NCBI GenBank assembly: GCA_965153355.1
Contig: OZ231126.1
Span: forward strand, 34,906,001-34,970,000
Source: Flaccisagitta enflata
Lineage: Eukaryota
Length of the DNA: 64,000 nucleotides
Direction of reading: 5' to 3'
The notes beneath the pieces were generated by a model. The model was not told the origin of the DNA. It searched no databases and saw only the letters and a list, made by a program, of their open reading frames with translations. Both the position numbers and the translations under genes were made by a program. Below are positions 14,407 to 62,297 of the stretch, piece after piece (within the stretch, counting starts at the first letter, position 1; each line of letters starts with the position of its first letter).

Positions 14407-14590
14407 AACAAGGCCGGATACACGGCTACCGAAGTCACGTGCGGGTGGGCAGGGGCCTTATTTGAGGTCACCAGATCATTTGGGCTGGAGCAGTGAGTTC
14501 AAAGAAAGAAAATCATAAAAAAGTAGAGTGTGACCGACCGACCAACCGACGGACAAAGCGGGTTGTAGAGTCGCGTGCACGCGACTAAAA
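14407..14590 (-). mobile_element. HINE/DINE-1-like family A, minus-strand representative
   Basis: AACAAGGCCGGATACACGGC...AGTCGCGTGCACGCGACTAAAA. Other - copies: 397-510 (partial), 2861-3168, 14698-14934, 15059-15231, 17295-17473, 20188-20360, 23251-23437, 32812-33168, 56320-56496, 59397-59595. Confidence 0.8.
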
Positions 14591-15384: not shown

Positions 15385-17111
<1,727 letters not shown>

Positions 17112-20100
17112 GTTTATAGTCCTTGACGCATTATTTTTTCCGTTGATAGGACTTCAAAAGTTAAGAACTTTTTATGATTGTCATATCATTACAACACATT
17201 TGGTCATCATTTAAGCCGGTGGTTGAAGGTTTTTTACCATTTTTGAATATTTTCCCGACGTCTACAGCTTTACTTTAATTGATTCACTTGAAAAAACAAG
17301 GCCGGATACACGGCCACCGGTTGCAGACGGGTGGGCAGGGGCGGAAATGCAACTTTCCGCCACTAAAAATGTTCTAAAATGCTTATTTTCCTACTTATGG
17401 ACTCATGCTGACGGACGGACGGACCAATGGACGGATAAAGCCTCTTATACAGTTACGTGTCCGCAACTTAAAAAGTGGCTTCCCATAAACAAGCTCAAGA
17501 AGAAAAAAAATGCTCACTCCGGGGCCCATATGCTCGATCAGGGCCGAGTGTAAGAAGGGAACCCGCCAGATTTGGCCATTTTTGACCTCAGAATCGGCTT
17601 CTACGGGTCAAAAAACCCTAGGATATGCTTCCTCAAATTATTCTTAAGTGAACCGGGCATAGTCTAAAAATGTCAGAGTTTGATCTTGGGGGAATTCCCC
17701 GGGGATTCCCCCAATTAGACTAACTTATTTTCTTCATTTCAAAACTAAATGGGGCATATGCCCCGTTAAGTCCCTTACGATAGAAATCGACCTGAAGAAA
17801 GCCACTGAAAAAAGGGTTTACTGATTTTTGACAAAACATTTTTGATCAAACAAAACTAAACTAAATGGGGCATATGCCGAGCTAGTCACTGAATCACGAA
17901 CTTTGAACTGGAAATGAGGCCAGTAAAGTCCCATTCCACTGAAGCACGACTTCGTGCTTCAGTGGAATTGACTTTTGACCTCTTTTCATAATGCAATGAA
18001 ACAAAAAATCAGTCCCGTTTTTCTTTGATTGGTCACAACAATTCATTTCAGTGCAATTAAAAACTTTTCTATTTCTCTTATTTAAATGAAAATAGGTTTT
18101 TTTTGTTGTCATAAATTGTTGTCTTTTGAAAATTTCTCTCAATTTGCTTTCTTTTTTAAAATTTTTTTCCCATGACAAAAATGTTTTTCTATCACATGAA
18201 TGTATGCTTTTATGAAAAAAAAGAGTTAAGTTTTTATTCTGATAAAAACTTGATAGATGTGAAAATATATTTTACTCTTGATATCAACATTCTTTTTATC
18301 TAGAAAGTCAACTTAGATGAAGAGAAAAGGTAAGAGGTAAGTAGAAACGAGATGATTTCTTCAGATAAAAGTTAATGAAAAATACTTTTACTATCTTTGC
18401 TTCAATGAAAAAATCAGTTATGACTAATTCCATTGAAGCTCAAATTGCAGAGAGCACTAGTTAGTCTTCATTCCACTGAAGCACGACGTCGTGCTTCAGT
18501 GGAAATGATTTTAACTTAAGCACAATTTTCGTGATTGAATGGTTGCCTGCATATGCCCTGTTAAGTCCCCGTTTAGTACCTGAATCATTTTTTTCACTAA
18601 TTTTTGATGGGGCATAGATTCGGGCATATTCAAACTAACTTTTTTTTACCGGGGATATTGGGGCTTTTGCCCGGGGCATTAATGTCACTTTTTTGTACTA
18701 CAGATTGCGCTGTGACCCGCCAGATTTGGCCATTTTTGACCTCAGAATCGGCTTCTACGGGTCAAAAAACCCTAGGATATGCTTCCTCAAATTGCCTGTG
18801 ATATTCCATCGGCATTCTGGACCCCGTTGCATCAAACCAGGTTTCCCTTTTGTCACATGAAGTTGATCTTTTCTTCGCCAGGGCATTTTCGTTATGTCGG
18901 CTCAAAACTAGTACTTTTTTTTTGCTGGAAAAGATAGAAAGAAAAGCAACAAATAAATAAAATACAAGTTATGGCGGCTGTCGCTATGAGGAAAAAAGTC
19001 GTAAGCATTGGTCACTTTTCACCAAATTTTTTAATTGTGTGCTACGCGACTGTACACCCCACTTTGTCGGTCCATTCGTTGGTCGGTTGGTTGGTTGGTC
19101 CGTCGGTTGGTCCCCTCTTAACTTTTTTGGCGTTTTTGAGCTTTTTTGGCAGCGGCCCCAAAGGGAACAAAGTCCTGTAGAATACAGGAGGACTTTCGTT
19201 CGTCCGTTCGTTCGTTAGTCCCCCCCAGGCCCTCTCAGGCCTGAAATCTGCCCTCTCAGGCCTGAAATCTACCCTCTCAGGCCTTGAATCTGCCCTCTCA
19301 GGCCAGAAATTTGCTTTCTAAGGCCTGAAACCTGTCCTCCTAGGCCATAAATCTTCCCTGCAGATTCAAGGCCTGAGAGGGCAGATTTTAAGCTTGAGAG
19401 GGCAATTTTAAGCCTGAGAGGGCAGATTTCAGGCCTGAGAAAGCCTGAGAGGGACTAATGGACGGACGAACGGACGAATGAACGGACGAACAAAAGTCCC
19501 CCTGTGTTCTACAGGACTTTGTCCCCTTTGGGGCCGCTGCCCTGCTTCCTCTCATTCCGATTTACAACCATGCAAAGCAGGGTAACGGGTATCGCTGACC
19601 ACATATTGCCCTTAAGCAAACTGTTAAGCATACGGCTCCTGCCCAGATGCTCTAGTGACTTTCTCCAGCACTGCTCCTGCCCACCCGCACGCAACTAGGG
19701 TAGCGGTATATCTGGCCTTGTTATTTTTGGTCATTGCAATTTTGTTAGATCAAATTAAGAGCAAATTGCAATGTACAATGTACATATTGGTTACATTGAA
19801 AATCAGGAAAAATTAGACAGAGCCAAATGAGCTAAAATACTCAAAATCATTCAACAAGACAACCAGCTATATTCACTGAAATGATTTCTTGATTTATATG
19901 TTTATGTCTAAACATTTATCTTATTTAAAATCAGAAAAAAACTGAGCTAAATTAGCTAATTGAGCTAAAATGTTGAAAAACAACTTTTCACATAAACAGC
20001 TATGCTCATAAACATGTTTCCTTGTATTTGCATACTCAAACAATCATCAATATATTTCTTTATTGATCCTACACAAAATCATAAAAAAAAATCCACTAAC

Positions 20101-21880: not shown

Positions 21881-24810
21881 CCAATTGTTCAACCGTGTTG
21901 AAATTGGTGATTTAGCTATGATTGGAAAGGTTTAAACTTAGTGCGGCTGTCTCCTACACGTAGACCAAATACGGCTTTTAGTCGCGGACACGCGACTCTA
22001 TAACCCACTTTTCTGTTGGTCCGTCGGTCCGTCCGTCGGTCGGTCACAAAGCTCTTTTTCGAGGTCTTCCGCTCCTGCCCACCCGTCCGCGACTTATGCT
22101 GCTGTGTATACGGCCTTGTTATTTTCTTACCAGTAATAGCGGCTGTCGCCGTAAGGAAAAAAGTCGTAAGCATTGGTCACTTTTCACCAAGCTTTTGTCT
22201 TTAGTCACTGCAAATCTTTTTTTCTATTAGATCAAATCAAAAGCAATTGTATGTATTGATTGCACTGAAAATCAGAGAAAAATATTACTGAGACAAATGA
22301 GCTAGATGAGCTAAAATGCTCAGAATCACTCAACCAGACAATCAGCTGTGCTCACTGACATGCCTTCTTGTATTTATATGCTCCTATCAAAACATTTATT
22401 TATCTTTCATTAGAGGCCACATTCGGCACATTCGCTTGGTGAAGATTCAGAACTTCCTAAAAAGAAAATGAAAACCCTATTTGTCTCGAATATGTCAAAA
22501 AGTCAAAGACTGATTTCAACTTTTTTCCAAATAAAAAAATTTTAGCTTCATTTAGCTGATGGAGGTCTCAAATATTATTGATGGTGAAAGTAGATTTGAT
22601 AACTTTCTATTGACGCTAAGCGTAATGCTTTACTAATATTTTTTCCATGTACACTGCGAACCATAAAAAAGATCACAGCTGTTCTAAAAGATATTCTTAT
22701 GAAAAAAAATAACTTTTCAATATTCTTTTTGTGAGAAATGGAAAGAGTGTCATCAAATGAAGCGAATGTCATAAATCCCATGAGTTTTCATCAATTATTT
22801 CAGATTTTATGATAAAAAGAAGATAATGGTGCCAGAATCTGTGTCCAAACTATAAATTCTTCAAAAAGTATTAATAAGGGACCTTTTTTATTTGATTTTT
22901 GTCATTAGCAGTGCAAGAAACCAATTGAAACCATAGACCATTCGAAAGATATTCAAGAGAGCTTTCATTTGCCGCCAATCTCACATTTCTAGCTTAATTT
23001 GTATAGATGCAGAAAAGAAAAGACGGAAGAGTATTCATTCTCAAGTTTGAAAAGGCGCATCACCAAAACGTACCTATTTTACTTCAAATGAATGTCATTG
23101 CCAAATGAATAAAGCTAGGAGGCTGGGATTCGCCTAGAATGAAAGATCATTTGAAAATCTTTCTAATGGTGACTGAGTCTTACTTTTTTTATTCAAACAT
23201 GGATATTTTGAGAGAAGAAAAAGATCAATATTTTTTTGAATTTGTGTGATAACAAGGCCGGATACACGGCTACCGAAGTCGCGTGTGGGTTGGCAGGGGC
23301 CATATTTGAGGCCACTCCATCATTTGGGCAGGAGCAGTAAGGCCAAAGACCCCAAAAACCTGAAAAAAGTAAAGTGTGACGGATGGACGGACGGACCGAC
23401 AAAGCGGGTTGTAGAGTTGCGTAGCACGCAACTAAAAAAGTTCCCTCATTTATCATTCATAAAAGGTTCAAATCAACTAAAAACTTATCGAAATCATTGA
23501 CATTGAGTAAGCCCTTTGAAAAATCTGTTGACCATTTCTGGAGTTACTAGCTCAACTGGTTTCCAAATTAAAATAGTTTTAATAAAATTTATCATTTACA
23601 AGCTATAACAGAAAATCTGTTGTTTTCCCACTTAGGTTATGATACATTTGTCTTCATTTTAACCTAAAATCCAAACAAATTGATCAAATTCCATGAGACT
23701 GGTAGCAAATTGTTAATTTTTTGAAGCTATTTAAAATGCTCATGAATAACAATAAGATTTGTTAAATATAAACTTTGAAAAACTATACTGAAATTTGTAA
23801 CTTTTTTTATAAGTCGCACTGTAATTTTTCAAAGATTTTTTTTGAAGAAATTCAAATTAAATTTTTTTTTATTTTTTTCTGATTTTATGTAAGATCAATA
23901 AAGTAGTTTATTTTTAGTTGAGTATGCAAATATAGTTGAACCTATTTATGAGCCTAGCTACTCATCTATGTAGGTCACAGTGCAAACAAAGGCAAAATTA
24001 GACAACCATACATATTCATAAACTGCTCTACTTTTAACTTATAACACATCAAAGTATACTTTGTTTTTTTAGTTTCATTATTTACATATACAATGCTTGG
24101 AAATAAAAACAAACCAAGAAACTTGATATTGCATTGATGAGAGACAGAAACAAACACTCATTTGCAAGAATTCCCTAAAAATATAGTGGCGAGAATTTAG
24201 GAAGCAGTTGGGTGAAATTTTTACACTATCTCCAGATACAAATATTTGCATTTTTAAGAACATAGCCTCATTCTTTCATGTTTTTGGAATGAGGCTATGT
24301 TTTTAGAAATGAAAATTTATCTTATTAGAAGCCGGCGTAGAATTTCACCTAAGACAACTCCGATTAGGAAATCAAATTTTCTTTATAAATCCACAATTTT
24401 TGCGTCTTTATCTTTATTTTTCTTACATTCAAGTGAGATATCAATTATCTTTCATGCAAAAATATCATAAATAAAAATAAATAAACCTATTTTTAGTTTA
24501 AAAAATTATCATTTCATGATATTAAACATACAGTGGAGAACTGCCTTTTCGGCACCAGATACAATGGTAAAACGGATTTGACGGCAGGCATTGTCAGGTC
24601 CCGAAATTTTCTAAGCTTGTGTAGTGTTGATTTCTTCGGGTTCAGCGGCACCAGTAACAAAGGCCAAACCGTATTGACCAACCGGAATTCCTTGTCCGAT
24701 TGACCACTTTCTTCGGAATTACCGACCCTCCGACCCTCGAACTCAGCGACCCACCAACCTCCAATCTGACCGACTTCCAAAATCGAGCGGTAAAGGCTCG
24801 TCCTCATCAG

Positions 24811-31130: not shown

Positions 31131-32403
31131 CCCTCACGTGCATATCTTCAGCTAGCATGTAAAAAAAAAAAAAATCTTTGAGGGTGGCAAAAAAAAAGTG
31201 ATTTCTATGTAAAATTGCATCAGGAATCCATTTTTGATGTTTTTAGGGCCCTACGAGGGGGCCCCTAGAAACGCACCAAAAAAACCAGCCAAAAATAGCC
31301 TATTTTGGCTATTTTTGTTGAAATTTTTTTGCTTAATGAGACCCCAACCCCCAAATTTTTTTGGTGGTAATACTTCTTGATGTAAGAGACTGAAAAAAAA
31401 ATGATCATGATGGTAAGTGATGGTTTGGGTACCTAAAAAGGCCCAAAAAGGGCCCGTAAAACATAGAAATATCACATTTTTATTCATTGCGCGTCTAAAA
31501 ATGCTTGGATTCCTACAAAATTTGAAATGGAACTTCTCATTTTATGCAACAAGCTTCCTAAGTTTTATGGCCACTTTTGAACAGCTTCATGTTGAAATTA
31601 TGCTAAAAAAAACAACCCGACCCAAAAAAAAAACCAATTCTTGAGTTTTCTTACATGAAAACACTATTTCAAGGTCCCTGAATCCAATTTTTTTTGAAAA
31701 TGGTTAGTCATGCATCTTGGGAGATCCCAGAAAAAATTTCAGCAGATATTTCCAAAAAATGGCCGAGTTATTACGGTTAATGACCTGGTAAATGAAAAAA
31801 ACACAATTTTGTAACTTCAAGGCTGTAGTACTAAAGAATCATACTAAAAGTACCTGGAAAATAGACATATTAAAAAGAAAATGCATGGGGAATCCATTAC
31901 TGGTGGTTTGGGGGCTCTATAAGGGGGCCCCTGGAAACAACCCCCCAAAAAAAGCTAAAAATGACCTATTTTGGCTCTTTTTTGTAAAAATTTCTTGTTC
32001 AAAGAGACCCAATCCTTCCCAATTTTTTTGGGCTATACTTCTGGATGTAAGAGACTGATGGAAAGAGAATCATGATGGTAGAGATGGTTAGCATTTGGTA
32101 GGCCCAAAAGGGCCCGTAAACATAAAGATATCATTTTTTTATTCACTGCACGTCCGAAAATGCTTGATTCCTAAAAAATTTGAAATGGAAATTCTCATTT
32201 CATGTAAATAGCTTCCTGCAAAATTTTTTGGTCACTTTTGAACAGCTTCATGGTAAAATTATGCTCAAACAAAATTCGCCCCAAAAAGGGCCCCTAAAAC
32301 CATTACTCTTGGGTCTGACATAGTGGGTTACAACTATACAGACACAAAGGAATCTCATAACAGGGGAGGGATGAAAATGGAAAGATGGCAGTGAGTAACA
32401 AGG

Positions 32404-32504: not shown

Positions 32505-34365
32505 GAGGGAGAGAGAGAAAGAGAGAAAGAGAGAAAGAGAAAGAGAGACAGAAGACTTTTTACCAAATATAAAAACAGGCTATTTGGCTTAGGCCCTTAT
32601 AGGAACCTTAAACCATCTGAAATAGATTCACTATGCATTTTTAAATACATTTAACTTTTTTCCAGTTACTCTTTGTAGAATTTTTCATGCAAACAGCCTC
32701 TTTACTTTTTTCATTAACCAGGTCATTTTAAACAGTACTAGCATGTTCTAAAAATATCTGCTTAAATTTTTTCTGGGACCTTTTAAGATACATGAGAAAC
32801 CATTTAGAAAAAACAAGGCCAACACCTATAAGTCGCGTGCGAGACATAGATAACTTATGATGACTCAAATTGACTTAAAATGACTTAAGATGACTGAAAA
32901 TAACTTAAAAAGACATAAAATGATGATAAATGACTTATACGACTAAATTGACCAAATTGACATGTTTACTTGATATAATGTAAAATGACTCAAAATGACT
33001 TACAATGACTTACAATAACTTAGAATGACTTAGAATGACTAAAAATGGCCTAAAATGACTAAGAATAACTAAAAGTAATAAAAAGAATAATGTTTGACCA
33101 ACAGACTGGACGGACAGACAGAGAGGGACGGACAAAGCGGGTTGTAGAGTCACGGCGCGTGGCAAAACTGGATTCCATGACCTTGAAATAAGTGTCTACA
33201 TGTGAGAAAACTAAAAATTGGCTTATTTTGGGGCGAATTTTGTTTTGAGTACACTTACCTATGAATCTGTTCAAAAGCTTTACATAAAATGAGAATCTCC
33301 ATTTCAAATTTTTTTAATCCAAGCATTTTTGGATGCGTGAATAAAAAAATGATATCTTTATGTTTTACCCCTTTCGGGCCTTTTAGGTACCCAACCATCA
33401 TCTACCATCATGATTCTCTTTCCATCAGTCTCTTACATCAAGAAGTATAGCCCAAACAAATTTGGAAGGATTGGGTCTCTTTAAATAAGACACTTTCAAA
33501 AATAGCCAAAATAGGCCATTTTTAGCTTTTTTTTGGGGTGTGTTTCCAGGGGCCCCCTTGTAGAGCCCCCAAACCACCAGTAATGAATTCCCCATGCATT
33601 TTCTTTTTAATTTGTCTATTTTCCAGGTACTTTTAGTATAATTTTTCAGTTCTACAGCCTTGAAGTTACAAAATTTTTTTCATTTACCAGGTCATTTTGA
33701 ACCGTAATAACTCGGCCATTTTTGGGAAATATCTGCTGAAATTTTTTCTGGGATCTCTCAAGATGCATGACTAACCATTTTCAAAAAAAAAAAATTGGAT
33801 TTAGGGACCTTGAAATAGTGTTTTCATGTAAGAATACTCAAAAATTGGTTTTTTTTTGGCCGAATTTTGTTTTTTGGAGCATAATTTCAACATGAAGCTG
33901 TTCAATAGTGGCCACAAAACTTTGCAGGAAGATTGTTGCATAAAATGAGAAGTTCCATTTCAAATTTTGTAGAAATCCAAGCATTTTTAGACGCGCAATG
34001 AATAAAAAAGTGATATTTCTATGTTTTACGGGCCCTTTTTGAGCCTTTTTAGGTACCCCAACCATCACTTACCATCATGATCATTTTTTTTTCAGTCTCT
34101 TACATCAAGAAGTATTACCACCAAAAAAATTTGGGGGTTGGGGTCTCATAAAGCAAAAAATTTTCAACAAAAATAGCCAAAATAGGCTATTTTTGGCTGT
34201 TTTTTTTGGTGCGTTTCTAGGGGCCCCCTCGTAGGGCCCTAAAAACATCAAAAATGGAATCCTGATGCAATTTTACACAGAAATCACTTTTTTTTTGCCA
34301 CCCTCAACGATTTTTTTTTTTCTTACAAGAAATAACGCAGCTAGCTGAAGATATGCACGTGAGGG
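31131..34365. mobile_element. Foldback-type element with ~1.2-kb inverted arms
   Basis: Ends CCCTCACGTGCATATCTTCAGCTAGC / GCTAGCTGAAGATATGCACGTGAGGG; CTTG on both flanks (31127-31130, 34366-34369); arms are internally duplicated; the centre holds (GA)n and a HINE-like copy. Confidence 0.85.
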
Positions 34366-40780: not shown

Positions 40781-41541
40781 TTGGGTTCTTCACATAGCAA
40801 AAGTTGGGAGTATCCCTTCACCCTATTTAGGTAATGTAGAGGAGCAAAAATCATGAAGATGACCATTTTCCTTTTTTTAAAATTCCTTCATCTTCTGTTT
40901 TTGTTTTGGCCTTAAAGTTTCCACTGATTTCCTAGAATTCAGCAAAATCCTGTTTACTTTTGTTACAAAAAGAATAATTATTTGTTTTAAAAATCATGAT
41001 GTATGAAAAAATAAACTAAAATATCAGATTATAAGTTATTAAAAAGCAAATGAAAAGGCTGAATTGCAATTCTATAAAGATTAAAAAATTATGAAAGCTG
41101 ATTCAAACAATGTCAGCATATTGTTTTATCCCACTGCATTATGCAAATTAGGTCCTCAAAAGCAATTTTTTAAAAAACAGTAGATGAATGATTTTTGATA
41201 AAATAAAAATGTAAAGGGTCTTAAAATTGGTCACTCTATATTAGGTAAAAAGGGCAAAAAGAAATAACCGACTTTTGCTATGCCACCTTGATCTGGGGGC
41301 TGAGAAAAACCCGAGATGAATCTAGCGTGTTTCAATAGCTTAATTTACATGAAAAGCATACTTCTAGTTAACCCAGTGAGATGAAATTTTAACTGAAGCT
41401 CTGCTAAACCATCGGCTTTCTTCATGTAAAATTTCATCCCACTGGGGAAATTAGATGTATGCTTTTTATGTAATTTAAGCTATTGAGATTCATCTCGGGT
41501 TTTTCTAAGCCCCCAGATCAAGGTGTATGCGAAGCACCCAA
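40781..41541. mobile_element. TTGGGTGCTTCAC-TIR MITE, third copy
   Basis: TTGGGTTCTTCACATAGCAAAAGT...GAAGCACCCAA; left TSD ATACCCCAT; right TSD split by a later TA insertion (ATA|...|TACCCCAC). Confidence 0.75.
41284..41525. mobile_element. 242-bp palindromic MITE, CAC termini, 5-bp TSD (Transib-like)
   Basis: CACCTTGATCTGGGGGCT / AGCCCCCAGATCAAGGTG; TSD TATGC at 41279-41283 and 41526-41530. Confidence 0.8.
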
Positions 41542-41544
41542 ATA

Positions 41545-42296
41545 CACTTTTTCTTTTATAAGAAAGAGACTTTTTTATAAGAAACATGAGGCTGAGATTC
41601 ACTGAAAATTTAAGAACAAAATAAGAGACAGCTCAGGCTGACTTTTGCCTCAGCTAATTTTTAGCGTGCATGCGACTCTACACCCCGCTTTGTCCGTCCA
41701 TTGGTTGGTCGATCAGTTGGTCAGTCGGTTGGTCCCCATTTTACTTTTTTTATATATTTTATTTCTTTAAGTCATTCAAGTCAAGATTTTTAGGTTAAAC
41801 TAAGTCATTCTAAGTCATTCTAAGTCATTCTGTTACCAACAGATTCTGTTTGTCTCGCACGCGACTTTTAGGTGTAGGCCCTGTTTTTCCTTTTATTACA
41901 AGTGAGAGTAGTAAAAGTAGTAATAGTAGCAGCAAAAGTAGTAGCAGTATCAGTAGTAGTAGTAGTAGTAGTAGTAGTAGTTGTAGTAGTAAAAGTAGTA
42001 GTAGTAGTAAAAGTAGTAGTAGCAGTAATATTAGTTATATGTTAGTTGTAGAGTAGTACTAGCAGTGGTTGAGGTAGTAGTAGTAGTAGTAGTAGTAGTA
42101 ACAGTAGCAATAACAGTAGTATCAATAATAGTAATATCAGTAGTAGCGATATTCATATCATTGATAGTATTAGTAGTAATGGATTAAGTCAGGGAAAATA
42201 AGAACAAATTAAGAGAATTTGAGGCTGAAAATGACTTGGAATTTAAAAACACTCAGGCTGAGTTGAAAAAAGGTTGTCTCTTATAAAAAAAAAATC
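41545..42296. mobile_element. TA-flanked CAC-ended MITE containing a HINE and (AGT)n
   Basis: TA|CACTTTTTCTTTTATAAGAAA...TCTCTTATAAAAAA; GAGGCTGA/TAAGAACA motifs shared with 24951-25384; right end degenerate. Confidence 0.6.
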
Positions 42297-44169: not shown

Positions 44170-44512
44170 ATGCCGGGCGTCGTCCCTCCCCGTTCGGATT
44201 GTAGTCTCCCTCCGACGCTGTCATCGACTTTTCCCATGGAGGGCGCCTCAGTGATGGCGTCTCCATCTGTGCCTCCGCCAACTCCCGACTCCGCTGCCAC
44301 GCTTCAGGCTCTCGACGCTCTTTTAAACGAATTCTTTTCTCCGTCAACGAAAAACGAACGGAAGCGAGAAATCGAGACGTTACTGAACGATTTCGGAGCT
44401 CAAAAAGATTCCTGGAGAATGGGTTTTTACTTCTTAGCCAATTCGACCAACGAATACGTAATGATGTATTCCATGACTGTCGTCGAAAATGTTATCAATA
44501 AAAGATGGCAAG
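44170..44512 (+). CDS. XPO6: Exportin-6, first coding exon (start ATG uncertain: 44170, 44236 or 44254)
   Basis: TLQALDALLNEFFSPSTKNERKREIETLLNDFGAQKDSWRMGFYFLANSTNEYVMMYSMTVVENVINKRWQG closely matches the recalled XPO6 N-terminus (SLRALESLMTEFF...NERKREIEELLNNF...NDYVMMYSLTVFENLINKMW); gtaatc donor at 44513; possible acceptor (ttatttacag) ending 44120. Confidence 0.92.
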
Positions 44513-44932
44513 GTAATCCTATCCATGTTTTTCGTAACTACACTTTCTTTTACAAGAACGTCACTTTTTTCTTTAAATATAAGGTAGTTTCAAGTTCATA
44601 AGTTGTTTTCAAACCTTTAATTGCTGGCGATGTCAGGGGCGTTCCCCTTGATATCGTACACAAAATCTGACTGACGGACCGTTTTTTTTTTTGTTTTTTT
44701 TTTTTTTTTTTTTGCCTCTTGACTTTCCTTTGCAAAAAAAAAAAACGTTCTTAATTGAGTTTATATTCAAAGGGAAAATGAAGGAAAATATCAATGAAAC
44801 TATAGGGCAGGTCTTAATGTTTCAAGTGAATGTGAAGATCAATGGAAATAAAATAAAACACGCTGTAAAAACAAAGATTTACACAACAATATCCATGGAA
44901 AAATGAAGCGTTTTAATATCTTTATGTCAGGG

Positions 44933-45447
44933 TTGGGTGCTTCACATAGCAAAAGTTGCTTATTTCTTTTCGTTCTCTTTACCTAATGTGGAGTGACCAA
45001 TTTTAAGACCCTTACCATTTTTCTTTTATCAAAAATCGCTTATCTTCCGTTTTTTAGAAAATTGTTTTTGAGAGCCTAATTTGTATATTGCAGTGGGATA
45101 AAAAGATACGCTGATCTTCTTTAAATTAGCTTATACAAATTTCTGCTCTTTAAAGAATTGTTAATCTGCCTTTTCACAAGCTCTTTCGTAAGTTATGCTC
45201 TGATATTTTAATTTATTTTTACAGAAATAATGATTTTCTTAAACAAACAATTGTTCCTTTTGTAACAAGACAACACAGGATTTTGCTGAATACTGGGAAA
45301 TCTGAGAAAACTTTAAGGCCAAAATAAAAACGGAAGATGAAGGAATTTTGAGAAAAGGAAAACGGTCATCTTCATGATTTTTTTCACTCCATATTAGGTT
45401 AGCGGAACGAGAAGAAAAGCCAATTTTTTGCCATACGAAGCGGGCAA
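44933..45447. mobile_element. TTGGGTGCTTCAC-TIR MITE, 9-bp TSD (MULE- or hATm-type), in XPO6 intron
   Basis: Exact TSD ATGTCAGGG at 44924-44932 and 45448-45456; internal sequence shared with 6213-6495 and 40781-41541. Confidence 0.85.
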
Positions 45448-46712
45448 ATGTCAGGGCCATTTTCTTCGCAGCGTGCTCACTATGGCCCTAAATGGTCACT
45501 TTTCCAGCTCCCAGGCCTAATTGAAGCCTAATTACCTATAACCTCAACCTTCAAACTTTCTACCCCGAACCTATGATCTAATTGACTCAGGACCGACTGT
45601 CCCATGACATGTTACGCATGAGGCCTCGACTTATTCGTCTGAAAAAACTACAGGTTTCGGTTGCCGGGTGTGCCAATATGCAATACATAATGCTATGGAG
45701 ATAACACACTAGGACAACTTGGGGCTACCAATTTTAACATAACGCCTTTACCGTTTTTCTTTTTTTCACATTTTGCTTATTCTTTTTTTTTTTTTTTTTG
45801 CATAACCCCTATTTTGCCCACCTAATTTTCATATTGTTGTAATCGTGTTATTGACTTATTTTCATTTCCTGTATATGTCTAGTTCGAAACATTTTTATTT
45901 TACCATGAGGTGTACCATACTACTAAAAAAAAGAGACGCACTTTTGAATCACCTATTTTGCCCATGAATCTTAGAAAAAGTTGTAAAAATGTTAGATCAT
46001 TTGAAAGCTCTTTGAAAGAACCTTCACTAGGCGTCAATCTGGTATTGCTATCTTTTTTCGTTTAGAAATGGCATTGATTTGAGTGAAAACATTGCCCATT
46101 TCAGTTTCGCAATTCTCATGTAAAAATGCATTTTAGCAAATCAGTGCTTCTCTTTGCAGAGTTCTAGCTCCCAAACTGAGATTGAGATTGAAATACAAAC
46201 CTAAGATTGGTCTAGATGGAAAGATAATTTGAAAATCTTTCAAAATGTCTGTTTTGAAAATAGTTAAAATTGATTTTTATATCTATTTCCTCAATCAATA
46301 AACAGGTGCGTCTTTTTTTTTTTTTTTTGGATCCACGTGGTAACACTGAACAGCAGCTTACTTATTTTATCGTATCAGAAATCTATAATTGTAGAACGGT
46401 ATCCCTATGAGCCAACTATATGTCTCTTGACAAACAAGAGAGCGGACATGTCTCAAAAAAAAAGTTTGCCAATCGATTTTTGAAAAAAAGGATACCACCG
46501 ATCGTCAAAATTGTCCAAATTCTCATTTTGAATGACGGTCATCACCCTCTATTTGGCACACCTGACTGCCGGGTTGCATCTTCCAACATTTCAGCCGCTG
46601 GAACAGCCTACATTTATCAGTGTTGTGTTTTGCCTAGTTAAGACTACATGACATGATTTATTTAAATCTATTATTCGATATATTAAAATTGCTGAAATTT
46701 CCATTAACTTAG

Positions 46713-46933
46713 GTTTGGATACGGAGACAAAAACTCAGATCCGCACAACATTAACGTCTTTCTTACTCGAACGGCATGCTCAGTTGCTCTACTTCGTAAA
46801 GAATAAGCTCGCCAAGTTAATAGTCGACGTTGGAAGGCACGATTGGCCCCATTTCTATCCCGACTTCATGGATAACATCTTCTCGTTGATTCAGACACCG
46901 TCAACTTCTCTGTTGGGATTAGTATTACTTCAG
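46713..46933 (+). CDS. XPO6: Exportin-6, second coding exon
   Basis: AG acceptor at 46711-46712, phase 1 compatible; reads GLDTETKTQIRTTLTSFLLERHAQLLYFVKNKLAKLIVDVGRHDWPHFYPDFMDNIFSLIQTPSTSLLGLVLLQ (XPO6: YFIRNKLCKVIVDIGRQDWPMFYHDFF); GT donor at 46934. Confidence 0.92.
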
Positions 46934-48743: not shown

Positions 48744-48753
48744 NNNNNNNNNN
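48744..48753. other. Assembly gap (10 N)
   Basis: Run of n in the sequence. Confidence 1.
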
Positions 48754-50561
48754 ACTCCGTACCCACTTGTTGATGCCGCCAAAGAGCGTTTGCAAAATCA
48801 TCTGTGGTATCTATCTGAGGAGATAACACCCCTAGTACTGGCATCGTCACTGATCACTTACACAGAACTGCGCGTGTTGTCGTGGTACACTCATTATAAT
48901 GAAATGTCATACAAATTTTAATAGTAAAGTCTTACGCACTAACCATTTGATGATCAAATGAATGTAGTAGTGCAGAAAAGTAGGCATTTAAAGACACCTC
49001 AGGAACCCAACTACACACTTGCATCACAAATTGGAGAACGATCCCCACACTTTTTCGCTACACTTGGAGTCGGTACAGTTGGCTCGACGAACCAATTGAA
49101 ACCTGGCTGGAGAATCCTGATTAGCACAAGCAACACAAATTTGCCCATCATCTTCAGTAGACAATTCCACAACTGAACGTATGATCCGGCGCACGTTTTT
49201 CTATCGCAACTTTAACTTGTCATCCAAGGATCGTACATGGTCAGCGGTACCTGATGCCCTGCTTGGAGTGATCAAGTGAAGTAGTGGAGTGAGAGGACAC
49301 GGGGGTGAATTTCGAGATGTCCTGAGGCAGATTTGAAGTCAGGATGGCAGAATTTAGTCCAAAAGAGCAGATTTGAGGTTTGGGGGGCAGGCTTGAGGCC
49401 TAGAGGACAAATTTGAGGCCTGAAGAGTTGATTTGAGGCCTTGGAGGACGGATTTGAGGTCTGGATAGCTGATTTGAGGTCTGGAGGGCAGATATGAGGT
49501 CTGGAGAGCTGATTTGAGCTCTAAAGGGCTAAATTGAGGTCTGAAAGGGCTAATTTGAGGGCTCAGAGGGCCAAAATCAGGCCTGAGACTGCAGACTTGA
49601 GGCTCCATTGGTCAAGGGGGGGGGGGGGACGGAAGGCTGGTATTTGAGCCTTGAGACTGGAATTTGAGCCTCAAGCCTGAAATTTGAGCCTTGAGGCTGG
49701 AATTTGAGCCTTGAGGCTGGAATTTGAGCCTTAAGGCTGGAATTTATGCCTTGAGGCTGGTATTTGAGCCTCAAGGCTGGGGTTTGAGCCTTAAAAGAGG
49801 GGGGACATACGGAGATGAAGGAGAAGGAGAAATTTCCCCAATGTGTGAAAGCATAAGTCATTGGCCCCTTTGGGGCCGCTGCCCAAAAGGGGACCGACTG
49901 ACTGACTGACCGACCGACCGACCGACCGACCTACCAACCGACCAACCGACCAACCGACCGACCGACCGACCGTCCATCCGACCGACCGACCAACCAACTA
50001 ACCGACCAACCGACTGACCAACCAACCGACCGACCAACCGACTGACGGACATAGCGGGGTGCAGAGTCGCGTAGCACGCGACTAAAAAGCTGGCTTACTG
50101 AGTGAAACTGGGTTTGTTCCACCTGAAATAGTATAGATAACCACTTTCTCTTATGCGCTTGGTCGGAATTATATCCAAATTAGCGATTTCACCATAACCG
50201 GAAGTGGCGCGCCGATAAAAGGCGTCATTTTTCGCCATCTAGCGTCAGTCAAACTCATTTTTGACGCCGGATTTGGATTCTACGTCAACAAGGTCAACAA
50301 ACCTTAGTCGCGTGGTAATAAGGGTAATAAAGGTAATAAAGGTAATTAAGGTAATTAAGGAAATTAAGGTAATAAAGATAATGAAGATAACTAAGTACCT
50401 AAATCTTCCTATAATTACCCACATTTACCTACAACTACCTGTAAATACCTATAATTACTTACAATTTGAAAAAGAGAACGAATTTTCAATGATGCGTTTA
50501 AAGTGTAATGAAGGAATGATAAAATCAACGACAGTTTTGAAGCATTTGTTAAACATGGAAT

Positions 50562-50596
50562 CGTCTGACTAGTTTCACATAAGCTCTTCAGAGACG
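50562..50596 (-). ncRNA. Minimal type I hammerhead ribozyme (inverted copy)
   Basis: Exact reverse complement of 50882-50916, inside a ~130-bp inverted repeat. Confidence 0.85.
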
Positions 50597-50881
50597 TTTC
50601 TAGGCAAAAAGAAAAGAAAAATTGATTAACAGATAGTAACAAAATATTCATTACTACTTAAATCAGTCCAAAGTTTCGAGGATAGACGCAAAAATGCATG
50701 AAAATCCAAAGAAAATGACTTGGAGAAGATTGAGGGAAGAAATTCAAATGGATTCCAACTGTCAAAATGATGCAGAAGAGAGAAAAAAGAGCATCAAATA
50801 TGATCACAGGTGTCACTGTAATGGAGAGATTGACTTTGTTACTATCTGTTAATCAATTTTTCTTTTCTTTTTGCCTAGAAA

Positions 50882-50916
50882 CGTCTCTGAAGAGCTTATG
50901 TGAAACTAGTCAGACG
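50882..50916 (+). ncRNA. Minimal type I hammerhead ribozyme
   Basis: CGTCT-CTGAAGA-GC(TTAT)GT-GAAA-C(TA)G-TC-AGACG: stem I CGTCT/AGACG, CUGANGA and GAAA cores, short stem II, palindromic minimal stem III, GUC triplet ending 50911. Confidence 0.85.
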
Positions 50917-51407
50917 ATTCCATGTTTAACAAATGCTTCAAAACTGTCGTTGATTTTATCATTCCTATATTACTTACAATTACATTAAATTACCATAAAT
51001 TATCTATGATCACCTATAATTACCCATTATTTCCTATGTTTCCTACAATTACCTCAATTTATAGTCCAAGACAACTTTTCTGACTTTTATTATACAGATT
51101 ACTAAAATACCCATATTTACCTATAATTACCTAGAATTACCTAAAATTACCTATAATTACTATAAATTACCTATAATTACCTTTAATAACCTTCAATAAC
51201 CTTTAAAACGACTATAAAGCCTATATTTCAAAAAAGTTACCGACCGACCGACCGACAGACAGACAGACCGACCGACCGACATAGCGGCTTCTAGAGTCGC
51301 GTTCACGCGACTAAAAATTATGTTGGAATCAGTATAGAATTCGGATTTTTGCCCAAGAAACATAAGCTATTGCAGGGTTACAAAAGAATTTGTCCAAAGA
51401 TTTATCT

Positions 51408-52311
51408 AACAAGCCCGATCAGGCAACGATGCGTCCTCTTCTTTTCTCTATTTAGAAGGAATTTCACGGATTTTGCATATTGCAGTTCCTTTTGTTAACA
51501 TCACTTTTCATGGTTAAAGAATACATCATTCTATAAATATACCAATTAACAAAATATGCATTTCTTGTTCTTTGAATTAATACTTAAATAACATTAAAAA
51601 AAAAAGAACCAATACTGTTAAATGGTAAGAGACCAGATTTATATGATAATTGACCAACAAGTTCAAAGACTCTAATATAAAAAAAAATGAGTTCTGGAGG
51701 TGGGAGGGATGGGGGCAGAATCCTGGCAGTCAGAATTAAAGATATGGGGGATGATTTCACATAACTCAAGAGATGCGAGGACGCATCTAAAAATGATAGG
51801 GAGGGGTTGTTGGTTGATTTGAGATGGATACTAGTGATTTTTGAACATGTGTAACGGAGAGACGGACGGACAGACCCTCTTATAGAGATGCGAGGACGCA
51901 TCTAAAAATGATAGGGAGGGGTTGTTGGTTGATTTGAGATGGATACTAGTGATTTTTGAACATGTGTAACGGAGAGACGGACGGACAGACCCTCTTATAG
52001 AGATGCGAGGACGCATCTAAAAATGATAGGGAGGGGTTGTTGGTTGATTTGAGATGGATACTAGTGATTTTTGAACATATGTGTAACGGAGAGATTGACG
52101 GACAGACCTTCTTATAGAGATGCGTGAGGACGATCTAAAAATGATAGGAGTGTTGCTAAGGATTTGAGATGGATACTTCAGTGATTTTTGAACATGTGTA
52201 CCTGAGAGACGGACGGACAGACCCTCTTATAGAGATGCGAGGACGCATCTAAAATGATAGAGGGGTTGTTGCTGATTTGAGATGATACTTCAGTGATTTT
52301 TGAACATGTGT
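51408..52311 (-). mobile_element. HINE-like family C with tandemly amplified 115-bp terminus
   Basis: AACAAGCCCGATCAGGC-AAC-GATGCGTCCT end; hairpin AGATGCGAGGACGCATCTAAAA repeated about 5 times at 115-bp period from 51769. Confidence 0.75.
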
Positions 52312-53399: not shown

Positions 53400-53900
53400 A
53401 GTTTGATTGGAGTCGCGACAAAAAGTAGAAATTTTCAACTTTTTGGCCACCAGGGAAAGAACATGTAGAGGCTGCAAAACATTTCAACATCCCTCAGACT
53501 ACCGTCTCAACAGTGGCCAAAGACAAAGAAAATATCTTGGATGAATGTTCCAAAAATCGAAATTCCACTGCAAAATCCTTCAAAAAGTCTCCTGATCCAC
53601 GAATCATTGGCGCGATGTGTGAATCTCATGCGGGGAAACAATGTTCCCATCAGTGGCGATTTGATACAGAGAAAGCTCTCAAGTTTGTGGCTGAAGAAGA
53701 AATAAAAGATTTTTTTCGCATCTGGTGTTTGGTTGTCACATTTAAAAGCCAGACATAACTTTTGTCAAAAACGCATTTGAAGAGGAAGGTGACGCGGACA
53801 CGGCATCGGTAGAGAAATGGCGAAAGAGGCACTTCCAACTCTCTTAAACGGATACTCAGATGACCAAATTTACAACGGAGATGAGACTGGACTCTTCCAC
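53400..53900 (+). pseudogene. Tigger/pogo transposase N-terminal relic (HTH domains and first catalytic Asp)
   Basis: AAKHFNIPQTTVSTVAKDKENIL (HTH), EKALKF...FASGVWLSHLKARHN (CENP-B-type HTH) and LLNGYSDDQIYNGDETGLF (the IxNxDETGLF motif), frameshifted and truncated after ~53900. Confidence 0.88.
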
Positions 53901-56211: not shown

Positions 56212-57514
56212 CCTCTTTACAAGAAAATGGAAAAATCTATAGACAAAATTGCCAAAAACAGGGAAAGTGACTTAAAATCAAGCCCAATTTGGGCGAGGTG
56301 TTCAAGAGGCAATGATCAAAACAAGGCCGGATACTCGGTGAGCAGGGCTATATTTGAGGTCACTAGACCATTTGGGCAGAAGCAGTGAGGTAAAAAAAAA
56401 TCACAAAAAAAAGTAAAATGTGACCGACCGACCGACCAACCGACTGACCAACTGACCGACAAAGCAGATTGTAGAGTCGCGTGCACGCGACTAAAAAATT
56501 AAGCGTGATGTGGCATAATTTGCAATTGTGCCATTCAGTACAAAATAGATCAACAACTGCAATGATAACGGATTTAAAGAAATGAGAAGCAACAAGTGAT
56601 AAGTGCCCCGAAAAACCGGAAATGGTAACCGGAAAACCGCGGTTTCAGCGCCAACCGGAAACGGAAGTCGCGTGGCGATTAGGAGGCGCGTCGAAATCGC
56701 GTCGAAATCGTGGCGGAAATGCTCTGTCGCAAGGCTCTAGTGGTGTGACATATATTGGAGAATTCTGGGCTGTTACATTTATCAGAGAAAATAAGGTGGT
56801 GGGACATTGGAGAAAATGGGCTATGTGACTTACATCGGAGAAAACTGGGCTGTGTGACATACATTGGAGAAAACTGGGTTGCATGACATACTTCGGAGAA
56901 CACTGGGATTTGTGACTACTGGTTTAAGTGGTAATGTTGTCCAATTTTCATATATTTCAGTACCATGGTATAGAATGCCAGCGATCCCATATGGTTGATT
57001 CTCGATTCTTGCCTCTAATGGTATGGTTTTTAACAACATTGCCTTTGATATCTAGATTATCTTTGGATAGCTACATCATCATTTGGTAATTTGTTCACTG
57101 TAAATAATAGATATATGTTAACTACTTTGCATTTTTTTATTTTGGGTTGACATGGAATGTTTGAGGGAATGGTCTCAGTCAGTGGAAAGGATTTTGATTT
57201 TAGGTTGTGGGTTGCATGAACCTTTTACAATGGGAAGATCAGATGGATGTGAGGGACTAGGTGCCCACAGTTCAGCACAATCATCTGGTACTCTTTCTTG
57301 TCAATGGTAGTTGTAGCAAACAGGTTGAAATTATGGATTTTTTCTTTCTGGTTGGATTGTTGTCTTGAATCATTTCATGATAATGTTAAGATAGACCTGG
57401 TTATCTTGAATACTAAGGATAGTTGTGATGGGTCCGGATTAAACACCAGTGAGAGCTCCAAAGGCTCTCATCCTTAAGTAAAGTAGGGTTGAGTGGTAAT
57501 GTTGTCCAACTTTC

Positions 57515-58512
57515 ATACATTGGAGAAAACTGGGTGGTGTGATATACACTGGAGAATTTTGGGTGGTGTGACATACAATGGAGAATTCTGGGTGGGGTGA
57601 CATATATTGGAGAATTCTGGGTGGTGTTACTTACAGTAGAGAATTTTGGATGGTGTGACATACATTGAAGAAAACTGGGTGGTGTGACAGAAATCAGTGA
57701 ATCTTGGGTTGTGTGACAGACATTGGAGAATCTTGGGTTGTGTGACAGACATTGGAGAATATTGCGTTGTGTGACAGACATTGGAGAGTTTTGGGTTGTG
57801 TGACAGACATTGGAGAATCTTGGGTTGTGTGACAGACATCGGAGAATTTTGGCTTGTGTGACAGACATAGGAGAATTTTGGTTTGTGTGACAGACATCAG
57901 AAAGTTTGATGCTGTGTGACAGACAACAGAGAATGTTGGGCTGTGTGACAGACATCGGAGAATTTTGGGTTGTGTGACAGCCATCGGAGAATCTTGGGTT
58001 GTGTGACAGATATCGGAGAATTTTGGCTTGTGTGACAGACATTGGAGAATTTTGGTTTGTGTTACAGACATTGGAAAGTTTAGGGCTGTGTGACAGACAT
58101 CAGAGAATTTTGGGCTGTGTGACAGACATTGGAGAATTTTAGGTTGTGTGGCAGACATCGGAGATTTTTGGGTTGTATGACAGACATTGGAGAATCTCGA
58201 GTTGTGTAACAGATATTGAAGAATTTTGGATTGTGTGACAGACATCGGAAAATTTTGGGCTGTATGACAGACATCGGAGAATTTTAGGCTGTGTGACAGA
58301 CATTGGAGAATTTTGGGTTGTGTGACAGACATTGGAGAATTTTGGGCTGTGTGACAGACATCGGAGAACTTTGGGTTGTGTGACAGACATCGGAGAATCT
58401 TCGGTTGTGTGACAGACATCAGAGAATTTTGGCTTGTGTGACAGACATTAGAGAATTTTTGGTTGTGTGACAGACATCGGAGAATTTTGCGTTGTGAGAC
58501 AGACATTGAAGA
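57515..58512. repeat. 29-bp minisatellite (CATTGGAGAATYTTGGGTTGTGTGACAGA); shorter arrays at about 55160-55382 and 56740-56915
   Basis: Direct reading of the period. Confidence 0.95.
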
Positions 58513-58683
58513 ACCCCAATTTTTGCAAAAGACGTACTGACACACGTGGAACACAAACACCCAAAAAGAATTGATATTCGGAATATAAACTGATAAAAGG
58601 ATGCTTTGTTGACGATAGGTGTCAGTTGCCTTTTCTTTCGACCTATGGTTTGCCCGTTTGTCTGTTCGTTGGTCCCCCTAGGC

Positions 58684-59045: not shown

Positions 59046-62297
<3,252 letters not shown>

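Follow-up and report, generated by a model that had tools for sequence, protein, structure and literature searches.

What kind of sequence is the roughly 500-bp unit at 50467-50968 of this stretch of the Flaccisagitta enflata genome, in which a hammerhead-like motif occurs on each strand, and could either motif cleave RNA? The initial annotation proposed an inverted pair of intact minimal ribozymes within a Penelope-like element (PLE) insertion. The evidence for insertion, for PLE origin and for activity is taken in that order below; "the window" is the whole 64,000-nt stretch.

Anatomy of the insertion

The unit at 50467-50968 is a real insertion, and a recent one. Its parts, with the flanking duplication, are:

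50454-50466, unstranded: left copy of the target-site duplication (TSD), ATTACTTACAATT, by direct reading an exact match to 50969-50981
50467-50511, minus strand: 45-nt "tail", a 3' extension of the minus-strand copy that is missing from the right arm (the insertion starts at 50467, the inverted repeat only at 50512)
50512-50643, minus strand: left arm, the pseudo-LTR-like (pLTR-like) 3' end of the minus-strand copy, 132/132 identical to the reverse complement of 50835-50966
50556-50467, minus strand: twin open frame by translation, 30 codons including the tail
50644-50834, unstranded: unique centre, 191 nt, with neither internal palindrome nor protein relatives
50835-50966, plus strand: right arm, the tail-less pLTR-like 3' end of the plus-strand copy (repeat search, blastn)
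50922-50966, plus strand: ATG-initiated open frame by translation, 15 codons to the arm end, candidate N-terminus of the element ORF
50969-50981, unstranded: right copy of the TSD, 13/13 identical to the left

The repeat search returned arms of 139 nt at 50505-50643 and 50835-50973, 99% complementary and 191 nt apart; blastn gave 98.6% over the same 139 nt and placed the exact portion at 50512-50643 and 50835-50966 (132/132 as reverse complements), so that the two reverse-complement arms of about 130 bp initially described are indeed there. An inverted repeat of this kind is far beyond chance. As a general feature of the region, inverted repeats are abundant: 223 further pairs of at least 60 nt lie elsewhere in the window.

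The target was an AT-rich 10-bp minisatellite, a TACCTATAAT array, and when 50467-50981 is taken out this array comes back into phase, with a lag-10 identity of 0.64 as against 0.34-0.36 at lags 9 and 11. The likeness between the two TSD copies reaches 19-20 nt if one 1-nt indel is allowed, and because CCTAT is common to the left copy and the element end, the exact junction could shift by up to 5 nt. The insertion is recent because its arms (132/132) and its target duplication (13/13) are identical throughout.

The centre either belongs to one of the two copies, as its 5'-truncated inner part, or is captured sequence. Its alignment to its own reverse complement is no better than that of shuffled sequence (286/300 shuffles reach the same score), and a Pfam search with its ORF gave no match. 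For the 70-aa ORF at 50640-50849, the sole phmmer match among 1.84 billion representatives (P0001) was judged spurious: it is a 45-residue-repeat protein, aligned in eight stretches at 23-26% identity.

Each arm ends in an open frame, and the tail prolongs this frame by 15 codons, open up to the element end. The frame by itself is weak evidence, since at least 30 open codons follow 474 of the 2220 ATGs in the window (21%). An Atlas embedding search with the 30-aa candidate N-terminal peptide was uninformative (best score 0.79), and an ORF-level search with the 84-aa frame that runs across the centre and right arm yielded one candidate, with no significant match. Reverse transcriptase (RT) and GIY-YIG Pfam domains were absent from the 66 ORFs of at least 100 aa in the whole window and from the 124 ORFs of 50-99 aa between 44.5 and 64 kb, 270 ORFs of this size class lying upstream of the scanned part. 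Blastn found no second copy of the element within the window, and a pattern scan of prokaryotic contigs, a collection not expected to contain it, gave 0 matches.

A hammerhead core with a crippled helix II

One copy of the string CGTCT-CTGAAGA-GCTTATGT-GAAA-CTAG-TC-AGACG lies in each arm, exact at 50882-50916 on the plus strand and 50562-50596 on the minus strand; the two copies are one event. The motif is laid out as follows:

50878-50920, plus strand: hammerhead-like motif, with stem I at 50882-50886 and 50912-50916, GAA at 50878-50880 and TTC at 50918-50920
50887-50893, plus strand: CUGAAGA
50894-50901, plus strand: helix II segment
50902-50905, plus strand: GAAA
50906-50909, plus strand: CTAG
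50910-50911, plus strand: TC
50558-50600, minus strand: hammerhead-like motif, with core and stem I at 50562-50596

Much of the initial description holds when both strands are read directly. Every residue of the hammerhead core (C3 U4 G5 A6 N7 G8 A9 ... G12 A13 A14 A15.1 ... U16.1 H17) is in place at 50887-50911 and in its minus-strand mirror. Stem I consists of the 5 bp of CGTCT/AGACG, within the 3-7 bp of the published descriptor, and can be extended, as had been proposed, by GAA/TTC, here beyond an A.A mismatch, by which the motif grows to 50878-50920 (plus) or 50558-50600 (minus). The palindromic CTAG of stem III is also as stated: it sits within ACTAGT, a 6-nt palindrome that is its own reverse complement, so that positions 15.2-16.2 and loop 3 are self-complementary. 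The predicted cut sites fall after C50911 (plus) and after C50567 (minus); the ATG lies 11 nt past the predicted cut, and the motif 10 nt upstream of the candidate ORF start.

Helix II was not mentioned in the initial annotation. The spacing from CUGAAGA to GAAA is only 8 nt, leaving a helix II of one G.U and one C-G pair that close a UUAU loop, i.e., 2 bp with a G10.1·U11.1 wobble. The minimal hammerheads (min-HHRs) of PLEs typically have a helix II of 6-8 bp in which the G10.1-C11.1 pair is highly conserved (Cervera & de la Pena; PMC4209133), and the published min-HHR descriptor sets a stem II minimum of 3 bp (PMC4209133 supplement). As implemented here, that descriptor has 0 matches in the window, and the locus fits it only after two constraints are relaxed (stem II of at least 2 bp, 4-nt loop 3). 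If the G that follows A9 is taken for a bulge, what remains is CUUAUGU, with at most 1 bp. A check with hammerhead models, suggested at the outset, was equally negative: in a search run without a PLE min-HHR as positive control, no Rfam hammerhead family reached the gathering threshold on the window, or E<=10 on 651 nt or even on 69 nt, and across these three scales no ribozyme family of any class appeared, only sub-threshold snoRNA, miRNA and other noise. The word "intact" is not supported, given the 2-bp helix II with G10.1·U11.1, the failure of the published descriptor and the silence of the Rfam models: the motif is a complete catalytic core with a crippled helix II, an ordinary relic rather than a proven ribozyme.

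How surprising is it to find such a motif at all? A loose descriptor (stem I of at least 5 bp, helix II free) has one or more matches in 66/300 dinucleotide shuffles of the window, falling to 12/300 when the helix III segment must be palindromic; a descriptor fitted post hoc so as barely to admit the locus matches in 2/1000 shuffles, with a palindromic match in 1/1000. Occurrence by chance in one window is thus unlikely, while chance matches are expected at whole-genome scale.

Among known motifs, the closest are the minimal type I hammerheads of metazoan PLEs (Cervera & de la Pena 2014), which share the CUGANGA...GAAA...UH core, the short stem I, the lack of loop-loop contacts and a palindromic helix III implying dimers, and which occur in pLTRs as opposite-strand pairs 100-700 bp apart, also at 5'-truncated PLEs (PMC4209133). 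The present motif departs from these in its helix II, 2 bp (G.U, C-G) where they have 6-8 bp, and in lacking both the bulged nucleotide that follows A9 and the G10.1-C11.1 pair. The "HHR_core" motifs of Naiad and some Hydra-clade PLEs, as characterized in passages of Craig et al. (2021), resemble it in the gap from CUGANGA to GAAA (7-17 nt there, 8 nt here), in lying close to the 3' end of a PLE whose targets are AT-rich repeats, and in falling outside stem and loop descriptors, but differ in that stems I and III are well formed here. In the metadata table of that paper (PMC8557442) the "HHR_core" rows number 10, none of them from a mollusc. Three motif strings from the locus have 0 occurrences each in the supplement text of PMC8557442, and three (one motif as RNA and as DNA, plus another RNA string) likewise have 0 each in the PMC4209133 supplement. 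A third group, the double-hammerheads of newt satellite 2 and ASBVd, also has a single-bp helix III with a palindromic tetraloop cap, stabilised only in the dimer; those, however, stand in direct tandem within a single transcript and have a normal helix II and loop-loop contacts, whereas the copies here are inverted.

Origin of the insertion

The locus is probably a dead-on-arrival, non-coding, head-to-head insertion of a PLE 3' end (the pLTR and ORF-start region) into the minisatellite, with a motif that is non-catalytic where it now stands. The 3' ends of the arms face outward, the arrangement of a pLTR with an adjacent inverted 5'-truncated copy; the tail is at the left end only, and at 45 nt slightly above the quoted 30-40 bp; and a short TSD, here 13 bp and exact, in an AT-rich or microsatellite target, here the TACCTATAAT array, is what PLEs leave. 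Descriptions of individual PLE insertions in the literature agree with this. In the section of PMC3846280 on Penelope of A. vaga, a 9-bp TSD accompanies the inverted pLTR, one copy of which bears a 31-bp tail on its 3' end; the first 12 aa of the ORF are encoded within the pLTR, or 22 if the tail is counted, and what lies between solo pLTR pairs is non-coding. Passages of PMC8557442 list 5' truncation, a tail of 30-40 bp, an inverted copy that is itself 5'-truncated, and a microsatellite bias. The initial statement that PLE insertions often show inverted pLTRs agrees with these descriptions. The hammerhead is placed at the pLTR-ORF junction in the relevant part of PMC11167929, and the presence of a second, opposite-strand min-HHR at a PLE truncated at its 5' end has already been published (PMC4209133, supplement legend S4A).

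Set beside Pen2a_Av of Adineta vaga, Penelope of Drosophila virilis and Poseidon PAc of Anolis, the locus shares head-to-head inverted ends, a pLTR ending with the first ORF codons (a candidate frame here), an AT-rich or microsatellite target, and a hammerhead motif at the pLTR-ORF junction. The TSD is 8-10 bp there and 13 bp here, and the extension at one end 31 bp or 30-40 bp there and 45 nt here; unlike those insertions, this one has no RT/GIY-YIG ORF between or beside its arms, and only about 500 bp were inserted. The lack of such an ORF in the window is expected for a heavily truncated copy: it limits proof of membership and excludes nothing. Of the initial proposal of a recent truncated PLE "or related retrozyme-like" insertion, then, the recent date and the PLE-type anatomy stand; the second half is very improbable, the copies being inverted rather than direct tandem.

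How might such a structure arise? By analogy with Poseidon of Anolis studied in vitro, whose protein cleaves and extends both strands from two internal RT start sites with the tail between them (according to passages of PMC11167929), the element's GIY-YIG nuclease would nick both target strands 13 bp apart, and each 3' OH would prime the copying of PLE RNA into DNA, starting at either of two internal sites separated by 45 nt, which would leave a tail at the left end only. Both cDNAs would then end early (132+45 nt for one, 132 up to 323 nt for the other) and be joined 5' end to 5' end, again by analogy with the Anolis element, and repair would yield the 13-bp duplication, as is general for staggered cuts. 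The hammerhead-like motif would be the pLTR hammerhead of the source family, its helix III palindrome suited to dimerisation.

Another possibility, an unlikely one, is that the unit is no PLE: a foldback or MITE-like DNA element, or some other hairpin-forming repeat, could carry a hammerhead-like string fortuitously. Long perfect inverted repeats around a short unique centre, with a TSD, are typical of such elements too; PLE coding sequence is not linked to the locus in the ORFs scanned; the loose hammerhead descriptor matches 22% of shuffled windows (the 66/300 above); and the window is rich in other inverted repeats, with its 223 pairs of at least 60 nt. Yet in a foldback or MITE the inverted repeats should abut the TSD at both ends, and here the left repeat begins 45 nt inside the TSD-defined boundary, so that the repeats are not terminal on both sides. 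A TSD of 13 bp is also unusual among DNA transposon superfamilies. The one-sided tail, the motif joining stem I to a palindromic helix III (1-2/1000 shuffles) and the ATG frame that runs into the tail form together the combination seen in PLE insertions.

Activity of the motif and setting of the locus

If the PLE origin is right, could the hammerheads nonetheless be functional, as ultra-minimal 35-nt ribozymes with a 2-bp helix II that dimerise between molecules via ACUAGU, in single-arm transcripts or mainly in tandem source copies? This is quite unlikely. The core is complete, with a stem I of 5+3 bp and a 6-nt palindrome for helix III, and a domain-swapped double-hammerhead can be written without steric objection, at -15.6 kcal/mol about equal to the -15.2 kcal/mol of two free monomers. 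Engineered minimal hammerheads tolerate a 2-bp stem II when 10.1-11.1 is G-C. That pair, conserved in PLEs, is replaced here by G10.1·U11.1, and stem II is under the published 3-bp minimum; no Rfam model matches; and the predicted minimum free energy (mfe) of the dimer, -23.6 kcal/mol, belongs to a different fold that lies 8 kcal/mol below the double-hammerhead. The monomer is no better placed, with a fold z of +0.64 and a hammerhead conformation at -5.9 kcal/mol as against an mfe of -7.6. The motif bears no sign of selection, because the arms are identical throughout.

The arrangement at the locus is a further obstacle. PLE min-HHRs are reported active as dimers (PMC4209133), and the initial annotation likewise took them to cleave best as dimers; this route fails here, in that it needs two sense copies and each strand has one, so that a dimer in cis is impossible. 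In read-through RNA that single copy would be sequestered by the whole-element hairpin, a 132-bp perfect stem of -259 kcal/mol on either strand. Self-cleavage and a long dsRNA hairpin, first proposed together for the same transcripts, are accordingly competing folds, of which the model favours the hairpin by about 250 kcal/mol. These nearest-neighbour energies take no account of how the hammerhead core folds in three dimensions, and in vitro even canonical hammerheads of PLEs cleave poorly (PMC4209133); for both reasons inactivity is inferred rather than demonstrated, and the motif at this locus is described as most likely non-catalytic. Any biological effect would more plausibly come from the hairpin, through dsRNA and small RNAs, than from cleavage.

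A long shot is that the source family carries a natural ultra-minimal hammerhead of about 35 nt (2-pair helix II, one-pair helix III, no loop contacts), kept by selection and able to cleave only where tandem PLE transcripts let it form a domain-swapped dimer. If true, it would be among the smallest self-cleaving hammerheads in nature, and would stand between canonical PLE min-HHRs and the "HHR_core"-only state of Naiad-type PLEs; were the family consensus helix II to be 2 bp and still to cleave, the lower size limit of natural hammerheads would be extended.

It is very improbable that the unit is a non-LTR retrozyme or an Sm-alpha-like SINE, i.e., a non-autonomous hammerhead element spreading via circular RNA. 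Animal retrozymes do stem from PLE pLTRs, in units of 170-400 bp with type I hammerheads, according to passages of PMC7229834 and bioRxiv 10.64898/2026.07.22.740005, and monomeric derivatives exist; the copies here, however, are inverted, where a retrozyme would show 170-400-bp repeats in direct tandem, each with a canonical type I hammerhead, and the motif is without the canonical helix II and loops of retrozyme hammerheads. The element has no poly(A), no tRNA-like or SINE module and no tandem direct copies, which together argue against LINE/SINE and retrozyme alike. Still less credible is an assembly error that made a palindromic chimera close to where scaffolds were joined. A gap of 10 Ns does lie 1.7 kb upstream, and PLE-type inverted structures are said in part of PMC8557442 to disturb assemblies, but a chimeric palindrome does not come with a clean TSD of 13 bp, a minisatellite restored in phase, an asymmetric tail and a unique centre of 191 nt.

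The same gap separates the element from two upstream exons:

44266-46933, plus strand: exportin-6 coding exons 1 (44266-44514) and 2 (46709-46933), from Pfam IBN_N and Xpo1 and tblastn with six full-length exportin-6 homologues

The gap (48744-48753) follows exon 2 and precedes the element. Downstream of the element, tblastn finds no later exportin-6 exon at E<=0.01, and at E<=50 only 26 scattered, non-collinear plus-strand matches with E>=5. If the element does lie in an exportin-6 intron, its 132-bp perfect hairpin could matter for annotation as a source of dsRNA.

Truncated PLEs with inverted pairs of pLTRs that bear hammerheads have been on record since 2013-2014, and the locus in itself matters little. 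With a PLE origin, the 30 residues encoded at 50556-50467 should form the start of the source element's ORF. As an example of its kind the locus is clean and young, and its boundaries fit recent in-vitro work in which a PLE protein was found to prime on both strands of the target, using two internal start sites.

Boundaries and arms of the insertion

The hammerhead element (50467-50968) is a real insertion. It is flanked by ATTACTTACAATT at 50454-50466, repeated at 50969-50981 as a 13-bp target-site duplication (TSD), and removal of 50467-50981 restores a 10-bp minisatellite of TACCTATAAT type in phase, identity in the rejoined minisatellite being 0.64 at lag 10 versus 0.34-0.36 at lags 9 and 11. 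If one 1-nt indel is allowed, the flanks are similar over 19-20 nt, a stretch that overlaps the terminal CCTAT of the element, so that the right junction is ambiguous by up to 5 nt. The right arm reaches its junction (50966) and the left arm starts 45 nt inside its own, making 50467-50511 an extension, or tail, at one end only. Direct reading found no poly(A) at either end; the unit contains no tRNA-like module, and has no direct tandem copy.

The reverse-complement arms and hammerhead-like strings described in the initial annotation are present. An inverted-repeat search gave arms of 139 nt (50505-50643 / 50835-50973), 99% complementary and separated by 191 nt, and alignment of the unit to the window with blastn matched 50512-50643 to 50835-50966 exactly (132/132), with no further copy within the 64 kb (remaining matches ≤43 nt, E ≥ 0.007). 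The 191-nt centre is without internal palindromy, 286/300 shuffles equalling it. The motif in each arm reads:

50882-50916 (+): CGTCT CTGAAGA GCTTATGT GAAA CTAG TC AGACG; predicted scissile bond after C50911
50562-50596 (-): the mirrored copy; predicted scissile bond after C50567

Stem I is lengthened by GAA/TTC beyond an A.A mismatch, extending the motif to 50878-50920 (+) and 50558-50600 (-).

Condition of the hammerhead-like motif

The same annotation called these hammerheads intact, and here it went too far. The motif has the hammerhead core, stem (helix) I and, for helix III, a palindromic ACUAGU; what falls short are helix II, the bulge after A9 and agreement with an Rfam model. Only 8 nt lie between CUGAAGA and GAAA, with possible pairs G10.1.U11.1 and C10.2-G11.2 around UUAU. 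For the minimal type I hammerheads (min-HHRs) of Penelope-like elements (PLEs), Cervera and de la Pena (PMC4209133) give four hallmarks that were not imposed, among them covarying consensus families, a highly conserved G10.1-C11.1 pair and a palindromic 15.2-16.2 / loop 3; helix II they put at 6-8 bp, which is unusually long. The RNAmotif descriptor of that study (supplementary Fig. S7) asks for the box gaaannuh and for 3-7 bp in stem II; implemented on the window, it gave 0 matches, and to admit the locus it must accept both a stem II of 2 bp and a loop 3 of 4 nt. Rfam hammerhead models likewise gave no match at the gathering threshold in the window, nor at E ≤ 10 on 651 nt; on 69 nt there was none at E ≤ 10 among listed matches down to 7.6 bits, and these models may have limited sensitivity for the PLE min-HHR subtype. 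The motif is not recorded here as an intact hammerhead; that it is a working ribozyme seems very improbable. U11.1, just before G12, could derive from a C-to-T change at a CpG; since both arms carry it, the change at 11.1 would be older than the insertion.

Could the motif be a chance match? A loose descriptor (stem I of at least 5 bp including G.U, CTGANGA, 4-30 nt, GAAA, 0-12 nt, TH; helix II not demanded) finds these two copies as its sole matches in the window, and at least one match in 66/300 dinucleotide shuffles (12/300 with a palindromic helix III segment). A tailored descriptor, fitted post hoc so as barely to admit the locus, matches in 2/1000 shuffles, with a palindrome in 1/1000. 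The two copies are a single event; a chance origin is unlikely within a single window, and at genome scale the motif is not convincing alone.

Predicted folding is unremarkable for the 60-nt monomer (mfe -7.6 kcal/mol, z = +0.64; 148/200 shuffles fold at least as well). The hammerhead conformation is put at -5.9 kcal/mol, or +0.6 with a single helix III pair, and a domain-swapped double-hammerhead at -15.6 kcal/mol, about that of two free monomers; the predicted dimer mfe is a different fold, 8 kcal/mol lower. These energies are weak evidence, because the models leave out the tertiary structure of the hammerhead core. A whole-unit transcript of either strand is predicted to form a 132-bp perfect stem (-259 kcal/mol) with the motif inside it. 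Self-cleavage and a long dsRNA hairpin, proposed together in the annotation, thus do not go together: on these predictions the hairpin buries the motif, and one transcript cannot do both. The min-HHR dimer route requires two sense copies (PMC4209133) and the window holds one per strand, so cleavage would need short single-arm transcripts meeting in trans.

Comparison with Penelope-like elements

The unit is most probably a truncated PLE insertion, as the annotation proposed: comparison with known PLE anatomy gives five structural features in support, but the defining coding link was not seen among the ORFs scanned. According to Arkhipova et al. (2013; PMC3846280), a typical Penelope insert has pseudo-LTRs (pLTRs) with an adjacent inverted pLTR and a 9-bp TSD, head-to-head is the commonest inverted arrangement, solo pLTR pairs with TSDs can enclose non-coding sequence, and the pLTR encodes the start of the ORF, 12 aa by itself and 22 when the 31-bp tail is included. 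Craig et al. (2021; PMC8557442) describe PLEs as often 5' truncated, with an inverted 5'-truncated copy, a 30-40 bp tail at one end and a microsatellite bias. Opposite-strand min-HHR pairs 100-700 bp apart have already been reported, as has a 5'-truncated PLE with a second, opposite-strand min-HHR at its 5' end (PMC4209133). As in PLE insertions, the 3' ends of both arms here point outward, the tail (45 nt) is on one arm only, and a TSD (13 bp) is present, in an AT-rich minisatellite target.

An ATG 11 nt past the predicted cut is open for 15 codons up to the arm end (50922-50966, +), and the same frame in the minus-strand copy for 30 codons, through the tail (50556-50467); the frame alone is weak evidence, at least 30 open codons following 474/2220 ATGs of the window. 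Frangieh et al. (2024; PMC11167929) place the hammerhead at the pLTR-ORF junction and report that the Anolis PLE ORF begins at stem II; here the usable ATG is 24 nt beyond the AUG of the stem II segment. That AUG, in the helix II/loop II segment (50898-50903), has UGA as its next codon, which makes a start-stop of one codon.

RT and GIY-YIG domains were sought without success in the 66 ORFs of 100 aa or more in the whole window and in 124 ORFs of 50-99 aa at 44.5-64 kb (270 such ORFs lie upstream of that scan). A search of 1.84 billion representatives gave no credible relative for the 70-aa ORF of the centre, and an Atlas embedding search none for the candidate N-terminal peptide; an ORF-level search found no other copies of the element, and a pattern scan of the prokaryotic DNA collection gave no match.

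In vitro, an Anolis Poseidon protein cuts both strands of the target and extends each of them, and reverse transcription begins at two internal sites, with the genomic tail between them (PMC11167929). The mechanism proposed for the unit is that a PLE GIY-YIG nuclease acting in trans nicked the target with a 13-bp stagger, and that both strands primed on PLE RNA, with a choice of two internal start sites separated by 45 nt; both cDNAs would have stopped early and been joined head-to-head, and fill-in would have generated the TSD. The product would be a fragment that neither codes nor moves, with a hammerhead-like motif, deficient in helix II, carried over as a passenger of the source pLTR. This overall reading is a reasonably probable one.

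Exportin-6 and other repeats in the window

Features of the exportin-6 region
44266-44514 (+): exportin-6 coding exon 1 (Pfam, tblastn)
46709-46933 (+): exportin-6 coding exon 2 (Pfam, tblastn)
48744-48753: 10-N gap, after exons 1-2

Pfam matches on these exons are IBN_N (E 6.2e-4) and Xpo1 (E 6.5e-7), and tblastn with six full-length homologues gives exon 2 identities of 51-56% to Lymnaea, Candidula and Aplysia and 48% to Penaeus; on these values the host is probably molluscan, or else from another lophotrochozoan group. Later exons (the remaining ~990 residues) were not found downstream within the window, indicating either a very long intron 2 or a wrong scaffold join; if the element is in intron 2, its + strand motif has the sense orientation of the gene. 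Inverted repeat copies (40832-41282 / 44945-45396; arms of 293 nt at 81% and 162 nt at 85%) bracket exon 1. The segment 46427-46945 is 98% identical to P0004, an unnamed 181-aa database ORF in a stop-to-stop frame that apparently includes exon 2 flanks, so the protein collection contains ORFs called on genomic DNA from this organism or a sister one; no equivalent database ORF was found for the hammerhead element.

A repeat terminus in which GACAWAGCGG..AGAGTCGCG comes after a (GACC/GACA)n microsatellite is dispersed through the window, with 11 occurrences versus 0 expected:

Copies of the dispersed terminus
11466-11489
14552-14575
16475-16498
19045-19068
23398-23421
33131-33154
41671-41694
50048-50071
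51278-51301
56458-56481
59555-59578

In the two copies read (50046-50090 and 51268-51318), the sequence continues into a short GTCGCG..CGCGAC hairpin and CTAAAAA, an arrangement that we take to resemble Helitron/Helentron-type ends. The hammerhead element has a + strand copy of this terminus on either side and therefore lies inside another repeat unit. The same architecture recurs in a tandem array at 51769-52311 (115-bp unit, 4.7 copies, 91% identity), each unit having a GATGCG..CGCATC hairpin, then TAAAAA and a GACGGACGGACAGACC tract.

A nested inverted repeat of ~3.2 kb (31158-31559 / 33926-34327, 402-nt arms at 97%; 31795-31982 / 33498-33685, 188-nt at 91%) contains no hammerhead-like motif, and its ORFs of 100 aa or more have no Pfam match; it is probably a further mobile element, one whose inverted ends are long. 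Weak sub-threshold DNA-binding domain matches at 53429-53755 (+) and 57416-58677 (-) (CENP-B_N, E 2.9e-4; HTH_24, E 6.9e-5 and 4.4e-4), one of them within a 327-aa open frame and with no RT seen, may be what is left of transposases, pogo/Tigger-like or other. Minisatellites at 49326-49794 and 50314-50390 comprise 20-bp units of two types, GGCAGATTTGAGGTCTGGAG and AGGCTGGAATTTGAGCCTTG, that are partly self-complementary, and an array of 9-bp GGTAATAAA units. Read in reverse complement, the 9-bp array approximates the TACCTATAAT-type array into which the element was inserted.
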